DNA from: a virus
Lineage: Duplodnaviria; Heunggongvirae; Uroviricota; Caudoviricetes
Length of the DNA: 9,373 bases
Direction: 5' to 3' (one strand)
Virus record (IMG/VR): IMGVR_UViG_2695420792_000007
The first letter of the stretch is position 1. Each line of letters begins with the position of its first letter. The notes under the pieces are model-generated. The model searched no databases and was not told the origin of the DNA. It saw nothing but the letters and a program-made list of their open reading frames with translations. Below are positions 1-8,439 of the stretch, one piece after another. Both the position numbers and the translations under genes were made by a program.

Positions 1-344
1 GCCATCATGAAAGTTAATTGCGTGTCCCGCACCTCCGCCTATATTCCCGGCAAACTGAGAAAAGTTTGTAGCTTCCTGCCAGCTTAATAATTCGCGACCA
101 CCGTCTGCACCTCGCCCGTCATCCCAGATACGAATGAAATCACCGCGGGCTTCAGGTAATACCAGCGAAGGAAACACTTTCGCCAGCACAGGATAATCAG
201 TGGCAGAGAATTTCGCGCCGTTGAACTTCAAAAACACCATACTGGACCAGCTGTCGATTACAGTATTTGGCATTGCAGCGGACGGCCAGAAGAACGGAAC
301 GCCAATAGCTGGAGCACCTTCTCCCAAACCAACGTTTAAGAAAA
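1..344 (-). CDS. Phage tail fibre variable C-terminal cassette 'a' (partial; runs off the window start; silent orientation with no upstream constant part in the window)
   Basis: Manual minus-strand translation from the crossover site down to base 1 is open with no stops: ...GLGEGAPAIGVPFFWPSAAMPNTVIDSWSSMVFLKFNGAKFSATDYPVLAKVFPSLVLPEARGDFIRIWDDGRGADGGRELLSWQEATNFSQFAGNIGGGAGHAINFHDG. This matches the phage tail-collar motif pattern of P2 H / Mu S / P1 S tail-fibre C-termini (recalled). Upstream on this strand is the antisense of the invertase leader, so no promoter or constant part is attached here. Confidence 0.7.
319..344. other. 26-bp inversion crossover site (hix/gix/cix-like), copy 1
   Basis: Sequence TTCTCCCAAACCAACGTTTAAGAAAA is an imperfect palindrome with AAACC..AA..CGTTT halves, closely resembling hixL TTCTTGAAAACCAAGGTTTTTGATAA (recalled). 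It sits directly upstream of the invertase and inside the tail-fibre reading frame, as in Mu G / P1 C / e14 P segments. Confidence 0.65.
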
Positions 345-399
345 TGCAGAGGTAACAGCTAACTGGCATCATCTCCGGTTTTTATTCAGGGGGATGATC

Positions 400-966
400 A
401 TGCTTATTGGCTATGTACGCGTGTCAACAAATGACCAGAACACCGATTTGCAACGTAATGCACTGAACTGCGCGGGATGTGAGCGGATTTTTGAGGACAA
501 AATCAGTGGCACTAAGTCCGACAGACCGGGGCTGAAAAAACTACTCAGGACACTATCGGCAGGAGACACGCTGGTTGTCTGGAAGCTGGACAGGTTGGGG
601 CGCAGTATGCGGCATCTTGTTACGCTGATAGAAGAGTTGCGCCAGCGTGGTGTGAATTTCAGAAGCCTGACTGACAGTATTGATACCAGTACCCCAATGG
701 GCCGTTTCTTTTTTCATGTCATGGGTGCCCTGGCTGAAATGGAACGCGAACTGATAGTTGAACGTACCAGGGCAGGGCTGGCTGCAGCTCGTGCCAAAGG
801 CAGAGTAGGTGGACGCCGTCCTAAGTTGACCACCGAACAGTGGGCACAGATTGGGCGTTTACTCGAGGCCGGAGAATCAAGACAGCGTATTGCACTGATT
901 TTTGATGTAGGCGTTTCTACCATTTATAGAAAATTTCCGGCAAATAAGATCAATGAATCCCCCTGA
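400..966 (+). CDS. pin: Serine DNA invertase, Gin/Hin/Cin/Pin family, copy 1
   Basis: Translation MLIGYVRVSTNDQNTDLQRNALNCAGCERIFEDK...SLTDSIDTSTPMGRFFFHVMGALAEMERELIVERT is near-identical in its N-terminal half to Gin/Pin as recalled, with the catalytic Ser in VRVSTNDQ. Start is placed at the second ATG (400) because homologues begin MLIGY and AGGGGG at 388-393 sits 6 nt upstream; the ORF track uses the ATG at 394. Confidence 0.9.
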   Translation: MLIGYVRVSTNDQNTDLQRNALNCAGCERIFEDKISGTKSDRPGLKKLLRTLSAGDTLVVWKLDRLGRSMRHLVTLIEELRQRGVNFRSLTDSIDTSTPMGRFFFHVMGALAEMERELIVERTRAGLAAARAKGRVGGRRPKLTTEQWAQIGRLLEAGESRQRIALIFDVGVSTIYRKFPANKINESP

Positions 967-1004
967 ATCAGCATTATGTTGATTATCCCTGCAAGCAGAC
1001 AAAT

Positions 1005-1022
1005 ACCGTTATTTTGTGTGAA
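1005..1022 (+). promoter_or_regulatory. TGT-N12-ACA Ogr/Delta-type activator box of a putative late promoter (PF-like) upstream of the sheath gene, copy 1
   Basis: TGTgtgaataacgacACA lies about 100 bp upstream of the FI-like start codon, where the P2 F-operon late promoter is expected. P2/P4 late promoters carry a TGT-N12-ACA element near -55 (established knowledge). The -10/-35 elements were not confidently located. Confidence 0.5.
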
Positions 1023-1108
1023 TAACGACACAACTGCGCTTAGCTGTTTGTCAGGCACAATCACTTCAACATAGGGCGAAGCCTAATCCAATCAGGAGGT
1101 TCGCCACT

Positions 1109-1282
1109 ATGGCTCAGGATTACCACCACGGGGTGCGCGTTGTTGAAGTCAACGAAGGCACCCGATCTATTACCACGGTGAGCACCGCCATCGTGGGTAT
1201 GGTCTGCACGGGCGATGATGCCGATGCAAAAATGTTTCCTCTTAATAAACCCGTGCTGATCACTGATGTGCTGACTGCCAGC
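1109..1282 (+). pseudogene. Tail sheath protein (P2 FI-like) 5' fragment, about 58 codons, copy 1
   Basis: AGGAGG at 1093-1098 precedes the ATG at 1109. [58 protein letters not shown] matches the recalled P2 FI N-terminus (MSDYHHGVQVLEINEGTR...[10 protein letters not shown]...). After 1282 the reading frame continues into the antisense of tail-fibre genes, so the 140-aa ORF in the track is not a real sheath protein. Confidence 0.75.
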
Positions 1283-1458
1283 ACTGGTTTTCCATTCAGT
1301 GTTCCAATCTGTTTTCCTGGTGGAATATCCATAAATAACTTTTTATGTTCTTCCTCACTGACTATTACACCATCATCAGGCCACAGACCTGATGCCTCAA
1401 ATTTTTCTTTCTCCGATATGGGGAAAAAGCCATTTGCTTTAGCGCTCCATACGTACAT
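1283..1458 (-). pseudogene. Tail fibre assembly chaperone (Tfa/Caudo_TAP-like) N-terminal fragment, cut at the duplication junction
   Basis: Minus-strand ATG at 1456-1458 gives [58 protein letters not shown], the characteristic N-terminus of tail-fibre assembly proteins (YxxSAKxNAFYP...WPDDAVEV, recalled). It starts 1 nt after the stop of cassette 'b'. Homology ends at 1283, where the strand becomes antisense of the sheath gene. Confidence 0.65.
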
Positions 1459-1459
1459 A

Positions 1460-1767
1460 TCAATACCCCACCGCTATAATGTCCACATTAAATCCCCCGG
1501 GACCTGCCTGCCAGATGCTGGCCCCTGTTAATGATTTTGTTTGATGAACAACCGCCACATTTGCTGGCGATTGTGTTTCAGTTGTTACAGTACCGATATC
1601 ATTCCAGTTAATTGAGATGGAATAGTTCGTTGTTGTAAACGACCGGGGGAAAGTTATGTGTCTTACATTGGTGCCAACAGGAAATCCAAGATAAACACGC
1701 TGAATTATCATTCCTCCAGGTAACATAACCCAGTTAGCACCTTCTCCCAAACCAACGTTTAAGAAAA
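1460..1767 (-). CDS. Phage tail fibre variable C-terminal cassette 'b' (silent orientation), read through crossover site copy 2
   Basis: Minus-strand frame is open from the crossover site to the TGA at 1460-1462: ...[97 protein letters not shown]. It shares the GLGEGA junction with cassette 'a' and then diverges completely, and is followed by a Tfa-type gene, as in Mu Sv-U units. The track ORF start at 1795 is an antisense artefact of the invertase leader. Confidence 0.6.
1742..1767. other. 26-bp inversion crossover site (hix/gix/cix-like), copy 2
   Basis: Same 26-bp sequence as 319-344, in direct (not inverted) orientation relative to copy 1. Confidence 0.65.
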
Positions 1768-1822
1768 TGCAGAGGTAACAGCTAACTGGCATCATCTCCG
1801 GTTTTTATTCAGGGGGATGATC

Positions 1823-2389
1823 ATGCTTATTGGCTATGTACGCGTGTCAACAAATGACCAGAACACCGATTTGCAACGTAATGCACTGAACTGCGCGGGA
1901 TGTGAGCGGATTTTTGAGGACAAAATCAGTGGCACTAAGTCCGACAGACCGGGGCTGAAAAAACTACTCAGGACACTATCGGCAGGAGACACGCTGGTTG
2001 TCTGGAAGCTGGACAGGTTGGGGCGCAGTATGCGGCATCTTGTTACGCTGATAGAAGAGTTGCGCCAGCGTGGTGTGAATTTCAGAAGCCTGACTGACAG
2101 TATTGATACCAGTACCCCAATGGGCCGTTTCTTTTTTCATGTCATGGGTGCCCTGGCTGAAATGGAACGCGAACTGATAGTTGAACGTACCAGGGCAGGG
2201 CTGGCTGCAGCTCGTGCCAAAGGCAGAGTAGGTGGACGCCGTCCTAAGTTGACCACCGAACAGTGGGCACAGATTGGGCGTTTACTCGAGGCCGGAGAAT
2301 CAAGACAGCGTATTGCACTGATTTTTGATGTAGGCGTTTCTACCATTTATAGAAAATTTCCGGCAAATAAGATCAATGAATCCCCCTGA
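1823..2389 (+). CDS. pin: Serine DNA invertase, Gin/Hin/Cin/Pin family, copy 2
   Basis: 190-aa translation in the ORF track is identical to copy 1; same start-codon reasoning (track start 1817). Confidence 0.9.
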   Translation: MLIGYVRVSTNDQNTDLQRNALNCAGCERIFEDKISGTKSDRPGLKKLLRTLSAGDTLVVWKLDRLGRSMRHLVTLIEELRQRGVNFRSLTDSIDTSTPMGRFFFHVMGALAEMERELIVERTRAGLAAARAKGRVGGRRPKLTTEQWAQIGRLLEAGESRQRIALIFDVGVSTIYRKFPANKINESP

Positions 2390-2427
2390 ATCAGCATTAT
2401 GTTGATTATCCCTGCAAGCAGACAAAT

Positions 2428-2445
2428 ACCGTTATTTTGTGTGAA
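2428..2445 (+). promoter_or_regulatory. TGT-N12-ACA Ogr/Delta-type activator box, copy 2
   Basis: Same sequence as 1005-1022, upstream of the second sheath start at 2532. Confidence 0.5.
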
Positions 2446-2531
2446 TAACGACACAACTGCGCTTAGCTGTTTGTCAGGCACAATCACTTCAACATAGGGC
2501 GAAGCCTAATCCAATCAGGAGGTTCGCCACT

Positions 2532-2915
2532 ATGGCTCAGGATTACCACCACGGGGTGCGCGTTGTTGAAGTCAACGAAGGCACCCGATCTATTACCACG
2601 GTGAGCACCGCCATCGTGGGTATGGTCTGCACGGGCGATGATGCCGATGCAAAAATGTTTCCTCTTAATAAACCCGTGCTGATCACTGATGTGCTGACTG
2701 CCAGCGGTAAAGCGGGTGAGTCAGGTACTCTGGCCCGTTCGCTGGATGCCATCGCTGACCAGGCAAAACCCGTGACCATTGTTGTGCGTGTGCCGCAGGG
2801 TGAAACGGAAGACGAAACCACGACCAATATCATCGGCGCAGTGACTGCTGAAGGTAAAAAAACAGGTATGAAAGCCCTGTTACCCGCAATATTGAACAGC
2901 TCGGTGATGCGCTGA
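2532..2915 (+). pseudogene. Tail sheath protein (P2 FI-like), truncated after about 117 codons
   Basis: [12 protein letters not shown]...[30 protein letters not shown]...[19 protein letters not shown] follows the recalled P2 FI sequence to about ...TGLKAML, then gives [10 protein letters not shown] and a stop. The ORF is 127 aa against about 396 aa recalled for P2 FI. Confidence 0.75.
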
Positions 2916-2935
2916 ACTATCTGGATGATAACGCC

Positions 2936-4984
2936 ATGTCGAAAGGGGCAGACATCATTGATGTCATGCAACGCCTGGGCGGTGTGGCTGATCGTCTGGA
3001 TTATCGTAAAGCGGCGGCGCTGGGTTCCACCTTTCTGACACTGGGCGCTGCGCCAGAGGTTGCAGCCAGTGCAGCAAACGCGATGGTGCGTGAATTGTCC
3101 ATTGCCACCATGCAAAGCAAGAGTTTCTTTGAAGGGATGAATCTGCTGAAACTCAATCCTGAAGTGATTGAAAAGCAGATGACGAAGGATGCGATGGGAA
3201 CTATCCAGCGCGTACTGGAGAAGGTGAACGCACTGCCGCAGGATAAACGTCTGTCTGCCATGACCATGTTGTTTGGTAAAGAGTTTGGCGATGACGCGGC
3301 GAAACTGGCAAACAACCTGCCGGAACTGCAGCGCCAGCTAAAACTGACAGCGGGCAATGATGCGCTCGGCTCCATGCAGAAAGAATCCGACATTAACAAG
3401 GACTCACTTTCTGCGCAGTGGTTGCTGGTCAAAACCGGAGCGCAGAACACCTTCAGCAGCCTGGGCGAAACGCTGCGCCAGCCGCTGATGGATATTCTGT
3501 ACACGGTGAAAAGCATCACGGGGGCGTTGCGCCGCTGGGTGGAAGCTAACCCGGAACTGACAGGCACACTGATGAAAGTAGCCGCTGTGGTGGCTGCGGT
3601 TACCGTAGGCCTCGGAACCTTAGCGGTGGCGCTGGCTGCAGTGCTGGGGCCGCTGGCAGTGATTCGTCTGGGATTCTCTGTGCTGGGTATCAAAACGTTA
3701 CCTTCCGTTACGGCAGCAGTAACCCGAACCAGCAGCGCGTTGTCCTGGCTGGCTGGCGCACCACTGGCACTGTTGCGACGCGGGCTTGCTTCATCGGGCA
3801 ACGCCGCAGGTTTACTTACTGCGCCGTTGTCGTCTTTGCGCCGCACGGCATTACTGACGGGAAATGTCCTGAAAACTGTAGCAGGTGCGCCGGTTGCACT
3901 TTTGCGGTCTGGATTATCCGGTTTACGTGCTGTTGCTGTGATGTTTATGAATCCTCTGGCGGTACTGCGCGGTGGACTGGCCGCCGCAGGCACGGTGCTG
4001 CGAGTACTGGCATCTGGTCCACTGGTGATGCTGCGCGTTGCCCTGTATGCCGTATCTGGTCTGTTAGGTGCTCTGCTCAGTCCGATAGGTCTTGTGGTTA
4101 CTGCACTGGCGGGCGTGGCGCTGGTTGTCTGGAAATACTGGCAACCCATCACCGCATTTCTTGGTGGCGTGGTGGAGGGATTCAAAGCGGCGGCAGGTCC
4201 CGTCAGTGAAGCATTCGAACCGCTTAAGCCCGTGTTCCAGTGGATTGGCGACAAAGTACAGGCGCTGTGGGGCTGGTTTACTGATCTGCTGACGCCCGTT
4301 AAGTCGACCTCTGCCGAACTGCAGAGTGCAGCGGCAATGGGGCGACGATTCGGGGAGGCACTGGCGGAAGGGCTAAATATGGTCATGCATCCGCTGGACT
4401 CCCTGAAATCCGGCGTTTCCTGGTTGCTGGAGAAGCTCGGCATTGTCAGTAAAGAGGTCGCAAAGGCAAAACTGCCGGAAAGCGTGACGCGTCAGCAACC
4501 TGCGACGGTGAATGCAGACGGTAAAGTGATGATGCCATCGGGTGGTTTTCCATCATGGGGATATGGCTTTGCGGGGATGTATGACAGCGGCGGGTATATC
4601 CCGCGCGGGCAGTTTGGCATCGTCGGTGAAAACGGGCCGGAAATTGTTAACGGCCCGGCAAATGTGACCAGCCGGAGAAATACAGCTGCACTGGCTGCCG
4701 TTGTTACCGGAATGATGGGAGTTGCTGCCGCGCCAGCAGAGCTTCCACCGTTGCACCCTTTGGCACTTCCCGCGAAAGGTGGAGAAGCAATTGTGAGTCG
4801 CGCAGCCACTGTGCCGCCCGTTTACAGGATTGAGGCACCGACGCAGATCATCATCCAGACGCAGCCAGGACAAAGTGCGCAGGATATTGCGCGGGAGGTG
4901 GCCCGCCAGCTTGATGAACGTGAACGCAGGCTGAAGGCAAAGGCCAGGAGTAACTACAGCGATCAGGGGGGATACGACGCATGA
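2936..4984 (+). CDS. Phage tail tape measure protein (P2 gpT-like), 5'-truncated; first in-frame ATG at 2936, frame open from 2858
   Basis: 682-aa ORF with a tape-measure-like N-region (...LGSTFLTLGAAPEVAASAANAMVRELSIATMQ...LFGKEFGDDAAKLANNLPELQRQL...), a central hydrophobic region with repeated PLxxLRxGL motifs, and a C-terminal Gly-rich end. The stop overlaps the gpU start (ATGA at 4981-4984). It is about 100+ residues shorter than the roughly 815 aa recalled for P2 T and has no RBS-equipped native start. Confidence 0.8.
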   Translation: MSKGADIIDVMQRLGGVADRLDYRKAAALGSTFLTLGAAPEVAASAANAMVRELSIATMQSKSFFEGMNLLKLNPEVIEKQMTKDAMGTIQRVLEKVNALPQDKRLSAMTMLFGKEFGDDAAKLANNLPELQRQLKLTAGNDALGSMQKESDINKDSLSAQWLLVKTGAQNTFSSLGETLRQPLMDILYTVKSITGALRRWVEANPELTGTLMKVAAVVAAVTVGLGTLAVALAAVLGPLAVIRLGFSVLGIKTLPSVTAAVTRTSSALSWLAGAPLALLRRGLASSGNAAGLLTAPLSSLRRTALLTGNVLKTVAGAPVALLRSGLSGLRAVAVMFMNPLAVLRGGLAAAGTVLRVLASGPLVMLRVALYAVSGLLGALLSPIGLVVTALAGVALVVWKYWQPITAFLGGVVEGFKAAAGPVSEAFEPLKPVFQWIGDKVQALWGWFTDLLTPVKSTSAELQSAAAMGRRFGEALAEGLNMVMHPLDSLKSGVSWLLEKLGIVSKEVAKAKLPESVTRQQPATVNADGKVMMPSGGFPSWGYGFAGMYDSGGYIPRGQFGIVGENGPEIVNGPANVTSRRNTAALAAVVTGMMGVAAAPAELPPLHPLALPAKGGEAIVSRAATVPPVYRIEAPTQIIIQTQPGQSAQDIAREVARQLDERERRLKAKARSNYSDQGGYDA

Positions 4985-5466
4985 TGATGGTGCTGGGATT
5001 GTACGTGTTTATGCTGCGCACCGTGCCGTATCAGGAACTGCAGTATCAGCGCAGCTGGCGACATGCGGCTAACAGCCGGGTAAATCGTCGTCCGTCCACG
5101 CAGTTTCTGGGACCGGACAACGACATGCTGACGCTTTCCGGTGTTCTTATGCCGGAGATAACAGGCGGCAGGCTGTCGTTGCTGGCACTGGAGCAGATGG
5201 CAGAACAGGGGAAAGCATGGCCTCTGATTGAAGGCAGCGGCACGATTTACGGCATGTATGTGATTGAGGGACTGAATCAGACTAAAACGGAGTTTTTCCG
5301 CGACGGTATGCCGCGCCGGATTGAGTTCACCCTGTCGCTCAAACGGGTGGATGAATCCCTGTCCGATATGTTCGGTGATCTCAGTGCGCAGCTGAATAAT
5401 CTGCAGGGAACGGCAACATCAGCCTTAAGCGATATCAGTAAAACGGTGGGAGGGCTTCTGTCGTGA
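4981..5466 (+). CDS. Phage tail protein gpU-like
   Basis: 161 aa, MMMVLGLYVFMLRTVPYQELQYQRSWRH..., matches the recalled P2 gpU N-terminus and length (about 159 aa). Start overlaps the T stop and the stop overlaps the D start (GTGA), indicating translational coupling in the F operon order T-U-D. Confidence 0.85.
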   Translation: MMMVLGLYVFMLRTVPYQELQYQRSWRHAANSRVNRRPSTQFLGPDNDMLTLSGVLMPEITGGRLSLLALEQMAEQGKAWPLIEGSGTIYGMYVIEGLNQTKTEFFRDGMPRRIEFTLSLKRVDESLSDMFGDLSAQLNNLQGTATSALSDISKTVGGLLS

Positions 5467-6209
5467 ATTTCAGCTCTGAACTGCTTAACAAAGGCAACAA
5501 AACTCCGGCATTCAGCATCAGTATTGAAGGCAGGGATATCACCACTGTGCTGGACAACCGCCTGATGGGGCTGACGCTGACGGATAACCGGGGATTTGAA
5601 GCGGACCAGCTTGATCTGGAGCTGGACGACGCCGATGGAAAAATCGTGCTGCCGCGCCGTGGTGCGGTCATTACGCTGGCGCTGGGCTGGAAGGGGCAGC
5701 CGCTTTTCCCGAAAGGGGCATTCACGGTGGACGAGATTGAACACACTGGCGCACCGGACCGCCTGACTATCCGGGCGCGAAGTGCTGATTTTCGGGAAAC
5801 CCTGAATACCCGCGAACCTGCGAAGAAAGAAAGCACCACGGTGAAGCGTAAGCGCAGAACTAAGAAGCAGAAGAAAGAGCCAGAAGCGAAGCAGGGCGAT
5901 TACCTGGTGGGTACGGATGAAAACGTGCTGGTACTTAATCGCACTTATGCCAACCGGAGCAACGCCGAACGAGCGGCGAAAATGCAGTGGGAACGCCTGC
6001 AACGCGGCGTTGCGTCATTCTCGCTACAACTGGCAGAAGGGCGGGCAGATCTCTACACGGAAATGCCAGTGAAAGTCAGTGGCTTTAAACAGCCGATAGA
6101 TGATGCGGAATGGACCATTACGACTCTGACGCATACCGTCAGCCCGGATAACGGTTTTACGACCAGTCTGGAGCTTGAAGTGAGGATTGATGATTTCGAA
6201 ATGGAATGA
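5463..6209 (+). CDS. Phage tail protein gpD-like (late gene D), apparently shortened by an internal in-frame deletion
   Basis: 248 aa from a GTG start. N-terminal (...LTDNRGFEADQLDLELDDADG...VDEIEHTGAPDRLTIRARSADFRETLN) and C-terminal (...WERLQRGVASFSLQLAEGRADLYTEMPVKVSGFK...GFTTSLELEVR) regions match recalled P2 gpD, but the protein is about 140 aa shorter than the roughly 387 aa recalled. Confidence 0.75.
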   Translation: MNFSSELLNKGNKTPAFSISIEGRDITTVLDNRLMGLTLTDNRGFEADQLDLELDDADGKIVLPRRGAVITLALGWKGQPLFPKGAFTVDEIEHTGAPDRLTIRARSADFRETLNTREPAKKESTTVKRKRRTKKQKKEPEAKQGDYLVGTDENVLVLNRTYANRSNAERAAKMQWERLQRGVASFSLQLAEGRADLYTEMPVKVSGFKQPIDDAEWTITTLTHTVSPDNGFTTSLELEVRIDDFEME

Positions 6210-6299: not shown

Positions 6300-6518
6300 A
6301 TGATGATTTGCCCACTGTGTGGAAGTGCCGCCCATACTCGCAGCAGTTTTCAGGTATCTTCATTGACCAAAGAGCGTTACAACCAGTGCCAGAACATTAA
6401 CTGCAGCCATACTTTTGTTACCCATGAAACTTTTGTTCGTTCGATTGCAACGCCAAAAGAGTCAAATCCGGTTCAGCCGCATCCAATGAAATCAGGACAG
6501 GTGGCGCTCTCTCTTTGA
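6300..6518 (+). CDS. ogr: Ogr/Delta-family zinc-finger late transcription activator
   Basis: MMICPLCGSAAHTRSSFQVSSLTKERYNQCQNINCSHTFVTHETFVRSIATPKESNPVQPHPMKSGQ... has the CxxC...CxxxxC zinc-binding pattern and matches recalled P2 Ogr (72 aa, ...CPLCQHAAHARTS...KERYHQCQNVNCSATF...RPHP...SGQ). GGGGAGA at 6284-6290 sits 9 nt upstream of the ATG at 6300; the track's 83-aa ORF starts at an upstream GTG (6267) that is probably not used. Confidence 0.85.
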   Translation: MMICPLCGSAAHTRSSFQVSSLTKERYNQCQNINCSHTFVTHETFVRSIATPKESNPVQPHPMKSGQVALSL

Positions 6519-6598
6519 CGCTGCCGCCATTTTGTCGCCATCGTTAAAAAACAGTGTTTCTAACATCATGATTTTAAACAGCTTAAATTTCAGGCAAC

Positions 6599-6641
6599 AA
6601 AAAACCCATCAACCTTGAACCGAAATGGCGGGGTTGATGGG
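6599..6641 (-). terminator. Putative rho-independent terminator for leftward transcription (ybjL), or att-associated hairpin
   Basis: A 10-bp inverted repeat, CCCATCAACC (6605-6614) and GGTTGATGGG (6632-6641), encloses a 17-nt loop and is preceded on the plus strand by A6 (6599-6604), giving a U-tract after the stem on the minus strand. It lies about 110 nt downstream of the ybjL stop, so the assignment is uncertain. Confidence 0.4.
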
Positions 6642-6753
6642 CTCCACAAAATGGGGACATCAAAGAAAAGCAGTGGCACTAATTAAGACTGATGCCCTGC
6701 GGAAAAGTTCTGCGGTTGTGCAAAAAAATTTCATTTTCAGGGCAACTTCAGTT

Positions 6754-8439
6754 TTATCCTAATCCTGGCCATACCATGACGATGATTGTCCCTGCCAGCG
6801 TCAGCAGGACGTTGGCGATTGCATAGGTGCCCGCATAGCCCAGCGCCGGGATGTTACTGCGAGCTGTATCACTGATGATCTCCATTGCCGGCGCGCAGGT
6901 ACGTGCGCCCATCATTGCGCCGAACAACAGCGCGCGGTTCATTCGCAATACATAAGCACCGAACAAGAAACAGATAACCACGGGCACCAGACTGACAATC
7001 AATCCGGCAATCAACATCTGACCGCCAATCGCGCCCAGGCCGTTATTAATACCGCTACCGGCGCTCAGACCAACGCCTGCCATAAACACCATCAAGCCGA
7101 ACTCTTTCACCATGCTTAATGCACCCTGCGGAATGTAACCGAAGGTCGGGTGGTTAGCACGCATAAAGCCCAGCATAATTCCGGCGAATAACAACCCGGC
7201 AGCGTTCCCCATGCCGAAACTGAATGTGCTGAACTGGAAGGTGATCATCCCGATCATCAGCCCAATAACAAAGAAGGCGCAGAATGCCAGCAGGTCAGTG
7301 ACCTGGCTGTGAATCGAGATAAAGCCGATGCGATCGGCGATGGTTTTTACGCGGCGGGCATCGCCGCTGACTTGTAAAACGTCACCTTTGTTAAGCACGA
7401 CGTTGTCATCTATCGGCATCTCAATCTGGCTACGAATGACGCGGTTAAGGAAGCAACCGTGATCGGTCAACTTCAGTTGTGCGAGACGTTTACCTACAGC
7501 GTTATGGTTTTTAACGACCACTTCTTCAGTGACGATACGCATGTCGAGAAGGTCACGATCGAAAACTTCTTTACCGTTACGGAAGCTGGGATCGAGTCGG
7601 GCATGGGCGTCGGGATAGCCTACCAACGCTATTTCATCGCCCATTTGTAGCACGGCATCACCGTCTGGATTTGCCAGAATCCCGTTACGTCGAATACGTT
7701 CAATGTAGCAGCCGGTTTGTCGATAAATACCCAGTTCACGCAGATTTTTGCCGTCGGTCCAGGCCACCAGTTCCGGGCCGACGCGATAGGCGCGGATCAC
7801 CGGTAAATAAACCTTACGGTTGGCATCAGTGTCCAGGCCACGTTCGCGGGCGATTTGCTGGGCGCTGGTCTGTAAGTCCTGATGCTGCAATTTCGGCAAG
7901 TAACGCGCACCAACAATCAAACTCACCAGACCGATTAAATAGGTTAAGGCATACCCGAGGCTCAGATTATCCAGTGCCAGTGAGAGCTGCCTGCTTTCCA
8001 TGCCGGAATGACGCAGTGTATCGCCAGCACCGACCAGAACCGGTGTCGACGTCATAGAGCCTGCTAACATACCGGCCGTCAGGCCAATATCCCAGCCAAA
8101 CAGCTTACCTAACCCTAAGGCGATCACCAGCGCACTGCCAACCATCACCAGTGCTAACATTAGGTAATTTTTCCCATCGCGAAAAAAAATGGAAAAAAAG
8201 TTCGGTCCGGCTTCGACCCCGACGCAGAAAATAAACAGCATAAAGCCAAGATTAAGCGCATCGGTGTTAATGCTGAAATGTTGTTGGCCTAATAACAGCG
8301 ATACGACTAAAACGCCAATGGAATTACCCAGTTGGATCGAACCAAGTCGTAACTTTCCGAGACATAGCCCAAGCGCGAGGACCACAAATAATAACAGAAT
8401 GTAATTCCCATTTAACAATTCGGCGACGTTTATATTCAC
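6754..8439 (-). CDS. ybjL: Putative transport protein YbjL (AAE/YidE-family membrane transporter with central TrkA-C-like domains)
   Basis: 561-aa ORF from a GTG start ([24 protein letters not shown]...VMVWPGLG) with hydrophobic N- and C-terminal halves around a soluble central region. Sequence, length and the ybjL-ybjM-grxA neighbourhood match E. coli YbjL as recalled. Confidence 0.9.

Follow-up and report, generated by a model that had tools for sequence, protein, structure and literature searches.

Two unrelated tail-fibre C-terminal cassettes lie on the minus strand at the left end of a viral DNA stretch of 9,373 nt (IMGVR_UViG_2695420792_000007; the window hereafter is this whole stretch), each abutting an identical 26-bp site that is followed by an invertase gene. 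The locus raises the question of whether it is a working host-range switch, as the original prediction held, or whether its tandem layout has some other origin. The features of the interval are:

1..312, minus strand: cassette a', a variable C-terminal tail-fibre segment in the silent orientation, with about 50 C-terminal codons missing
313..1282, plus strand: repeat copy 1, which begins with the shared junction codons GLGEGA (313-330) and also contains the site, the invertase and the first 58 sheath codons
319..344, plus strand: crossover site copy 1, 26 bp, TTCTCCCAAACC AA CGTTTAAGAAAA
400..966, plus strand: DNA invertase (pin-like) copy 1, 188 aa; copy 2 is at 1823-2389
1109..1282, plus strand: sheath (FI) fragment in copy 1, codons 1-58, identical to 2532-2705
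1283..1284, no strand: novel junction, sheath nt 174, a single base 'A', then tfa_b' codon 58, with no usable microhomology
1284..1458, minus strand: tfa_b chaperone stump, the N-terminal 58 of 142 codons, matching PHROG tail fibre assembly at 7e-13
1460..1735, minus strand: cassette b', the second variable tail-fibre C-terminus, also in the silent orientation and complete including the stop codon
1736..2705, plus strand: repeat copy 2, in which 1742-1767 is the site, 1823-2389 the invertase, and the sheath begins at 2532

The two C-termini had been called unrelated, and the translations of 1-345 (minus strand) and of the ORF at 1460-1795 (minus strand) indeed have only the residues encoded around the site in common (GLGEGA, 313-330). 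Cassette a' is incomplete because the contig end cuts it, the window starting at base 2 of contig CYEH01000023.1, one base from the contig end. It is 97-99% identical to the invertase-adjacent a' of TW10598, IMT5155 and TUM9754. The tail-collar motif proposed for cassette a is upheld by PHROG matches to tail fibre (2e-44) and tail-collar fibre (3e-34), but not by the Pfam Collar match (E = 0.006), which is below the cut-off. Cassette b matches Pfam Gp53-like_C above the cut-off (6.8e-6, 27 bits); b' is 99.7% identical to the b' of an intact relative, L001, and in other genomes cassette b occurs fused in frame to the constant part of H. A chaperone of its own had also been assigned to cassette b, and tfa_b does adjoin it, but only as the first 58 of 142 codons, followed by antisense sheath sequence. 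The stump is identical to the N-terminus of WP_000289820.1 of L001 and has no Pfam match, the full-length relative being a Caudo_TAP protein at 1e-33; the ORF at 1120-1458 (minus strand) runs on from it into the antisense of the region of the first 58 sheath codons. An intact chaperone for each cassette is therefore a feature that the window lacks in the case of tfa_b, and tfa_a lies outside the window.

The invertase is located where the original prediction placed it, in the slot that fun(Z) occupies in P2, immediately upstream of FI. Pfam assigns it Resolvase (2.3e-53) and HTH_7 (1.5e-15) domains, it matches the PHROG DNA invertase at 7e-101, and it aligns to the Gin structure 3UJ3 at 1e-92 over 184 residues, including the YVRVSTNDQ catalytic motif. 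The architecture is that of the small serine recombinases: the catalytic serine motif is N-terminal and the HTH is C-terminal. Also characteristic of Gin/Pin/Cin/Hin (Din) inversion systems is a Fis-dependent recombinational enhancer located in cis in the 5' part of the invertase gene, where conservation of the coding sequence would confound an alignment. Identity to e14 PinE is 83.5% in protein (157/188 aa) and 81% in DNA. The 26-bp site, TTCTCCCAAACCAACGTTTAAGAAAA, is found at 319-344 and 1742-1767, with no chance matches in 200 shuffles, and matches both the right-hand site of L001 and the e14 P-segment sites. An inverted copy was sought in the whole window and none was found; both copies are on the plus strand. 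They share one orientation because each sits inside a direct repeat, 313-1282 being 100% identical to 1736-2705 over 970 bp with a period of 1423, and for the same reason the interval 1-1767 also holds an entire invertase gene together with 58 codons of the sheath.

Intact relatives are ordered differently from the window: H constant part, site, a segment of cassette-tfa followed by tfa'-cassette', inverted site, invertase and sheath, with the constant H part and the inverted site some 1.7 kb further left. The two sites of L001 are in inverted orientation: 7713-7738 has the core TT, and 9459-9484 has AA as its core on the plus strand. Of the 5,426 complete E. coli genomes searched, well over a thousand contain related sequence, and both orientations of the segment are represented; the a'-site-invertase junction is present in 253 of the 5,426 and the b'-site-invertase junction in 82. 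The predicted in-frame junction of the H constant part with flipped cassette b was found in complete genomes at 99-99.7% identity, and both H::a and H::b fusions are annotated as full-length fibres in relatives. One relative (L016) is the flipped form of another (L009), the two sharing protein accessions for the invertase and for each of the chaperones, and the sequence of the clonal isolate CUVET23-RF4 is a garbled consensus of both orientations in which the flipped junction is also present. For the source strain of the window, the a'-site and b'-site joins both occur in one assembly, suggesting that the culture was mixed for segment orientation. In the intact relatives, the constant 5' part of H ends in ...LTYLGLGE, where the 26-bp site is located, and the second, inverted site is just upstream of the invertase gene. 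Two cassette-plus-chaperone pairs lie tail to tail between the sites. Inversion of the segment by the serine invertase brings one or the other cassette in frame with H, so that it is expressed together with the chaperone of its pair.

In the G segment of Mu (Gin) and the C segment of P1 (Cin), a constant fibre part is accompanied by two C-termini, each with a chaperone, and the invertase gene lies just outside the segment. The switch of the relatives follows the same logic, although the phage families differ. Within P2-like prophages, the Fin invertase of Fels-2 is said to have been linked to tail-fibre phase variation by Kutsukake in 2006. Phage P2 and the window prophage share the late order FI-FII-E-T-U-D-ogr, and the G-to-FI slot is a cargo position in which P2 carries fun(Z), without an invertase or alternative cassettes. 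The e14 element of E. coli K-12 has a P segment and PinE (Plasterk & van de Putte 1985, cited in PMC4272514), and inversion of the e14 segment in culture is documented (PMC4272514). Window-type loci share with e14 the homologous crossover sites and the layout stf-tfa / tfa'-stf' - pin; however, the e14 remnant is lambdoid and is followed by mcrA, whereas the window invertase precedes a P2-type sheath, and the cassettes differ. Invertase-driven phase variation of tail fibres has already been published for P2-like prophages of EPEC E2348/69 (Goldberg et al. 2014, PMC4272514), one locus having three inverted repeats and three alternative C-termini (PMC4272514). Flipping was demonstrated there by read mapping and PCR, whereas for the source strain here we infer it. 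Given this publication and the relatives' layout in both orientations, the kind of system is already known. Escherichia phage 500465-1 (Peduoviridae, Wadgaonvirus; NC_049342) is 99.8% identical in DNA over site-invertase-sheath, and its order of H, tfa, tfa', cassette', invertase and sheath is identical to that of intact prophages at ybjL or ssrA (S1-CAM-01-A, WP8-S17-ESBL-05, 14EC007). Unlike the window, all of these combine a single invertase copy and an inverted site on the left with full-length chaperones and an entire tail operon. The proposed class, a Gin/Pin-type invertible segment with alternative receptor-binding C-termini, thus stands, but the layout in the window, with its direct sites, is not that of such a switch.

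Cassettes a' and b' of the window are one right-hand junction written twice in tandem, not two halves of one invertible segment. We consider it reasonably probable that the window holds the right end of a standard Gin/Pin inversion system whose true locus is single-copy and whose mixed orientations were mis-assembled as a tandem. The tandem two-cassette layout is probably not the true locus structure, and repeat copy 2 (1736-2705) is probably the sole real copy. The true locus would have a single copy of site-invertase-sheath'; with both segment orientations in the sequenced culture, reads would join a' and b' alike to that copy, and the draft assembler would have written both junctions in series through the sheath::tfa_b' join, which would be spurious or carried by a minority of molecules.

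Searches for this join outside the source assembly were negative. The sheath::tfa_b' junction had no match in the 5,426 complete E. coli genomes, nor among GTDB representatives or in JGI metagenomes. Across it, the ORF at 1109-1531 continues from the sheath fragment into antisense tfa/cassette sequence, and the resulting 140-aa chimeric ORF had no homologue with the junction in 5.8 billion protein clusters; exact protein look-ups were likewise negative. From three shared unique junctions, which are the sole basis, we infer that ERR178192 is the run behind GCA_001284685.2. The Logan contig ERR178192_76 (16,425 nt) begins at window position 1900, and its retrieved stretch is 100% identical to window 1900-3615. 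It crosses the 2705/2706 and 2882 junctions unbranched. A clonal duplication is expected to produce a full-coverage fork at 2705, at which Minia graph simplification would leave a contig break.

That missing fork bears directly on the unlikely alternative of a genuine, clonal tandem duplication of 1,423 bp, with two invertase genes, two direct sites and the inverted site further left. Two routes would give the observed order exactly. In one, tfa_b'(5')-b'-site-invertase-sheath(5') was duplicated illegitimately and a single inversion then placed a' by the left copy; in the other, a tandem double lysogen lost the entire interval separating the copy 1 sheath from the copy 2 tfa_b'. The junction is also clean, without Ns, and the prophage has two other genuine illegitimate deletions, with 2-8 nt of microhomology. 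Against such a duplication, besides the unforked Logan assembly at 2705/2706, are the occurrence of the junction and chimeric ORF in no other assembly searched and the ready loss of a perfect 970-bp direct repeat by homologous recombination, as is generally known.

The mis-assembly that we favour has difficulties of its own. A de Bruijn assembler needs shared k-mers to make a join, and therefore reads or a gap-closing step must have supplied sheath::tfa_b'. Moreover, the Logan contig ends at 1900, inside the invertase, rather than at 1736, where the a'/b' fork is expected. Creation of the join by the invertase at quasi-sites was rejected, since neither partner resembles the 12-2-12 site and the top-strand dinucleotides differ. 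A contig break from an internal repeat between the chaperone genes was dismissed as well, there being no repeat boundary at L001 position 9000. Nor can pinE of e14 be the cause of the end at 1900, as it shares no 25-mer or longer with the window invertase; among other invertase alleles, a mosaic boundary at window 1900 was not seen.

The end at 1900 does suggest a second invertase-like sequence in the genome, as would be expected if the source strain had two related P2-like prophages, one with a' and one with b' at the invertase, and the first 1,283 bases had been mis-joined onto the ybjL remnant. Many E. coli have at least two such prophages, with a median of 2 matching places per genome. Repeat copy 1 (313-1282) is 100% identical to the prophage of TW10598, which is located at the ssrA site, and base 1283 ('A') is a natural sheath SNP of IMT5155. 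Nevertheless, a shared invertase-sheath stretch should make the Logan graph branch, either at 2706 or at the deletion junction at 2882, and neither position has a fork; moreover, two prophages do not account for the sheath stopping after one extra base and then jumping into tfa_b'. We regard this origin as quite improbable.

Whether the inversion system could serve a phage depends on the rest of the prophage, the features of which are:

2532..2882, plus strand: truncated sheath, cut after codon 117 of 390, with the ORF continuing to 2915 in tape-measure sequence
2883..4984, plus strand: 3' two-thirds of tape-measure T, a 682-aa ORF from 2936, the intact gene encoding 1,025 aa
4981..5466, plus strand: gpU (Phage_P2_GpU)
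5463..6209, plus strand: gpD with a 354-bp in-frame internal deletion, 248 versus 366 aa, junction 5803-5813
6300..6518, plus strand: ogr/delta late activator, followed by the prophage right end, ybjL, ybjM and grxA

Judged by its sequence, the prophage is a member of the P2 family (Peduoviridae, 186/Wadgaonvirus-like) integrated downstream of ybjL. The P2-like assignment made earlier was correct: the late operon FI-FII-E-T-U-D, then ogr and the attachment site, is collinear save for two deletions, apart from which identity to FORC_081 and 14EC007 is 98.5-99.9%. The first is a 2,806-bp deletion from sheath to tape measure relative to FORC_081, with a 2-nt 'TA' microhomology, which is also in the Logan assembly. 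The joining of sheath to tape measure removed the tube gene (FII) and E, both absent, and FI, T and D are reduced to 117/390 codons, 682/1,025 aa and 248/366 aa, respectively. These deletions are real, because the truncated FI', T' and D' proteins occur in both the NCBI and Logan assemblies; the 248-aa form of gpD is present in other strains too.

The window prophage therefore lacks a functional tail to which a fibre could attach, and the prophage is dead. An intact, working host-range switch, with the constant part and inverted site just left of the window, is consequently very improbable, even though the invertase ORFs are intact with the YVRVSTNDQ motif, the sites are perfect and exactly such an arrangement exists in relatives. 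Without the tube gene and E, and with sheath, tape measure and D truncated, a tail cannot be built, and tfa_b is truncated as drawn in the window. With the tail module destroyed, a phage host-range function in the source strain is refuted, and with it the switch as a working device; the inversion itself may still occur.

The sheath deletion has parallels elsewhere. Sheath nt 351 is a recurrent deletion endpoint, with at least 12 independent deletions to different partners in other strains, and a mirror-image event occurs in strain SF10. The region showed no similarity to the crossover site, nor to any other part of the whole prophage including replication gene A, and only a weak 6-bp hairpin lies near it (z = -0.87). 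No report of a hot spot at sheath nt 351 was found in the literature, and to our knowledge no CRISPR protospacer, gyrase/topoisomerase consensus, Chi, DnaA box or IS target fits the position convincingly. A doubtful reading is that the switch module (cassettes, site, invertase and 117 sheath codons) is kept and flipping, and that the amputation of the tail reflects a recurrent site-specific break at nt 351, not random decay. The 1,423-bp unit might also be a real minority duplication or a circle from the fragile 5' sheath region.

As a switch, the locus offers nothing new, tail-fibre variation in P2-like prophages being published and annotated in phage records. It does call for caution, in that invertible segments that are heterogeneous in culture may enter draft assemblies as tandem 'duplications', artefacts that mimic multi-cassette shufflons with extra invertase genes. 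The sole lead worth a specialist's time is the clustering of deletions at one sheath nucleotide in P2-family remnants, which may indicate a specific mechanism of prophage inactivation; if the site-specific break were true, P2-family prophages would be exposed to an as yet unknown nicking or recombining activity, or to strong selection.

The invertase in the window belongs, as the original prediction had it, to the Gin/Pin family. It matches Pfam Resolvase (2e-53) and HTH_7, it matches the Gin structure 3UJ3 (1e-92) with the catalytic motif aligned, and 157 of 188 residues are identical to e14 PinE. Cassette a matches the PHROG tail-fibre and tail-collar fibre families (2e-44 and 3e-34), but its Pfam Collar match reaches only E=0.006; it is visibly homologous to another cassette with a Collar score of 3e-15. 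Cassette b was identified as Gp53-like_C (Pfam). The assembly chaperone thought to follow cassette b is recognizable (PHROG tail fibre assembly, 7e-13), but only its first 58 codons are present; the full-length relative has 142 aa and matches Caudo_TAP at 1e-33. The predicted correspondence of the invertase position, between G and FI, to the P2 fun(Z) locus was sound, fun(Z) lying directly upstream of FI in P2 itself.

The window represents bases 2-9374 of contig CYEH01000023.1 (92 kb) from the draft E. coli assembly GCA_001284685.2. Because it begins at the contig end, the source holds no sequence to its left. A P2-family late operon runs rightward through the window and is followed by ybjL, ybjM, and grxA. 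The features of the left part are as follows.

1-312, minus strand: cassette a', variable part of the tail-fibre C-terminus, cut by the contig end
319-344, plus strand: 26-bp site TTCTCCCAAACC-AA-CGTTTAAGAAAA, copy 1
400-966: serine invertase, 188 aa, copy 1
1109-1282: sheath gene FI, codons 1-58
1283: single A between the sheath fragment and tfa_b'
1284-1458, minus strand: tfa_b', first 58 codons of the tail-fibre assembly chaperone
1460-1735, minus strand: cassette b', a second fibre C-terminus unrelated to a'
1742-1767, plus strand: 26-bp site, copy 2, same as 319-344
1823-2389: invertase, copy 2, same as 400-966
2532 onward: sheath gene, second occurrence

Positions 313-1282 and 1736-2705 form a 970-bp direct repeat (100% identity) whose period is 1,423 bp. 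The two copies of the site share the plus strand and the whole window contains no inverted copy, so that the invertible-segment layout expected of a switch is absent from it.

The sheath::tfa_b' junction created by the tandem repeat was found in none of 5,426 complete genomes, in no GTDB representative or JGI metagenome, and, with the 140-aa chimeric ORF as query, in none of 5.8 billion protein clusters. The Logan contig ERR178192_76 comes from an independent assembly (k=31) and has the window's three unique truncations; its retrieved stretch is identical to window 1900-3615; it is therefore unbroken across the right boundary of the repeat at 2705/2706. In Minia contig building, a clonal duplication would produce an equal-coverage fork at 2705/2706, and the contig would break. 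The absence of a break implies that the reads lack the junction, or that only a minority of molecules carry it. A genuine clonal duplication of 1,423 bp is therefore unlikely, even though the join has no shared k-mer able to mislead a de Bruijn assembler and two other illegitimate joins occur in the same prophage. A chimera of two prophages is quite unlikely too. Probably, the culture contained both orientations and the repeat is an artefact or a minority variant.

The Logan contig ends at window 1900 (equivalent to 477 in copy 1), inside the invertase gene, whereas the cassette a'/b' fork would place its end at 1736. K-12 e14 pinE was rejected as the cause of this break, as it shares no 25-mer or longer with the invertase, and the other invertase alleles compared have no mosaic boundary at 1900. 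The A at 1283 coincides with a natural but rare SNP (sheath nt 175, GGT to AGT) found in IMT5155, DE17, and VTB96815v; this SNP is their sole difference from the window over the first 351 sheath nt. This match hints at a graph branch point and could be chance.

Judged by its sequence, the window's prophage is dead. With FORC_081 as the reference, FI breaks off after nt 351 and runs into mid-T across a 2,806-bp deletion with TA microhomology that takes out FII and E. An in-frame 354-bp deletion in D, with 8-nt microhomology ATACCCGC (window 5803-5813), leaves a gpD of 248 aa versus 366. Neither junction was found in any complete genome, but both deletions are real, because the exact truncated proteins are present in both NCBI and Logan. 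Other NCBI and Logan assemblies contain a 248-aa D' form as well, and the region of its right endpoint (before PAKKESTT) serves as an endpoint again in P0076 and P0140, two unrelated fusions of sheath to D. With FI, T, and D damaged and FII and E gone, the window does not contain the functional host-range device that had been proposed; the original observation is partly confirmed and its interpretation partly supported, the type of system having been assigned correctly.

Dozens of sheath proteins that are truncated or fused came up in a homologue search with the chimeric ORF and were mapped onto an intact prophage. At least 12 different junction partners, lying in FI, FII/E, T, U, and D, are joined to one and the same left endpoint, sheath nt 351 (codon 117), which is also that of the window's own FI::T deletion. 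The endpoint, ...AAAGCCCTGTTA|TCTGCC, was located in the compared loci as follows.

2882: window
12483: reference L003 (FORC_081)
6353: L020
5351: L021/L022
2552: L024
5351: L025
5001: L026

At the DNA level, 6/6 cases checked end at nt 351, with microhomology of 0-4 nt, and the cases span different FI alleles and upstream contexts. TA precedes 8 of 12 partner sites. The complete genome SF10 carries the mirror event, in which all sequence left of nt 353 is deleted, and a divergent sheath allele (87% identity) is rearranged at about nt 356. A second, weaker cluster of endpoints falls at sheath codons 62/63. Full coverage around nt 351 is missing from just 6 of 985 complete-genome records; per genome, then, such events are rare, but they are focused on one position. 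No resembling site was found elsewhere in the phage, the hairpin beside nt 351 is weak, and we found no literature on this endpoint. In L029 (4001-5016; GCA_039748975.1), two different tail modules stand head-to-head, J-I-H-tfa-sheath(1-356) meeting the 3' end of an invertase-tfa-H-I-J set that runs the opposite way. Such an arrangement points to inversion or rearrangement involving two prophages; the sheath hot spot again supplies one of the endpoints.

Of the 5,426 complete E. coli genomes searched, 1,968 contain sequence related to the query interval. Intact prophages share the order I, H, tfa, tfa'(-), cassette'(-), invertase, FI, FII, E, T, U, D, ogr, both at ssrA (S1-CAM-01-A, TW10598, IMT5155) and at ybjL (FORC_081, 14EC007), and Escherichia phage 500465-1, a Peduoviridae record, has the same I-to-ogr order. 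Locus L001 has its left site, TTCTCACATACC-TT-GGTTTGGGAGAA (7713-7738), within H and inverted relative to the right site (9459-9484). The junction predicted by inversion, the constant part of H joined to cassette b, was built in silico; it is in frame, and three complete genomes contain it at full length with 99.1-99.7% identity; the match in CUVET23-RF4 is 97.1%. Relative to CUVET24-CCU22 (L009), WP8-S17-ESBL-05 (L016) has the segment flipped, and the two chaperones and the invertase have identical protein accessions in both. In CUVET23-RF4 (L008 2622-3859, NZ_CM172035.1), which is clonal with CUVET24-CCU22, the segment consensus aligns to the clonal sister both ways (82% and 95% identity) and gene calls are broken across the invertible segment; from these alignments, the record looks like a polished mixture of two inversion states. 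The a'-site-invertase join is present in 253 genomes and the b'-site-invertase join in 82.

Inversion has been demonstrated experimentally in P2-like prophages of EPEC, one locus having three repeats and three alternative C-termini (PMC4272514), and a tail-fibre inversion system of this kind is therefore already known. The P2-family prophage of the window (186-like CI/CII; seen at window 6519-6753 and in the flanks in L003/L019/L026) occupies the interval from rcdA to ybjL in about 940 of 5,426 complete E. coli genomes; prophages closely related to it in the late region sit at ssrA instead. Among other ybjL remnants, a reverse transcriptase (RVT_1) adjoins a portal fragment in L020 (997-1971), and an acyltransferase replaces the invertase in the G-to-FI cargo slot (L020 4756-5658; L022 3756-4658). 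In FORC_081 (L003 10596-11990), whose ybjL prophage is otherwise intact, IS26 lies within the invertase gene, which would fix the fibre segment in one orientation.
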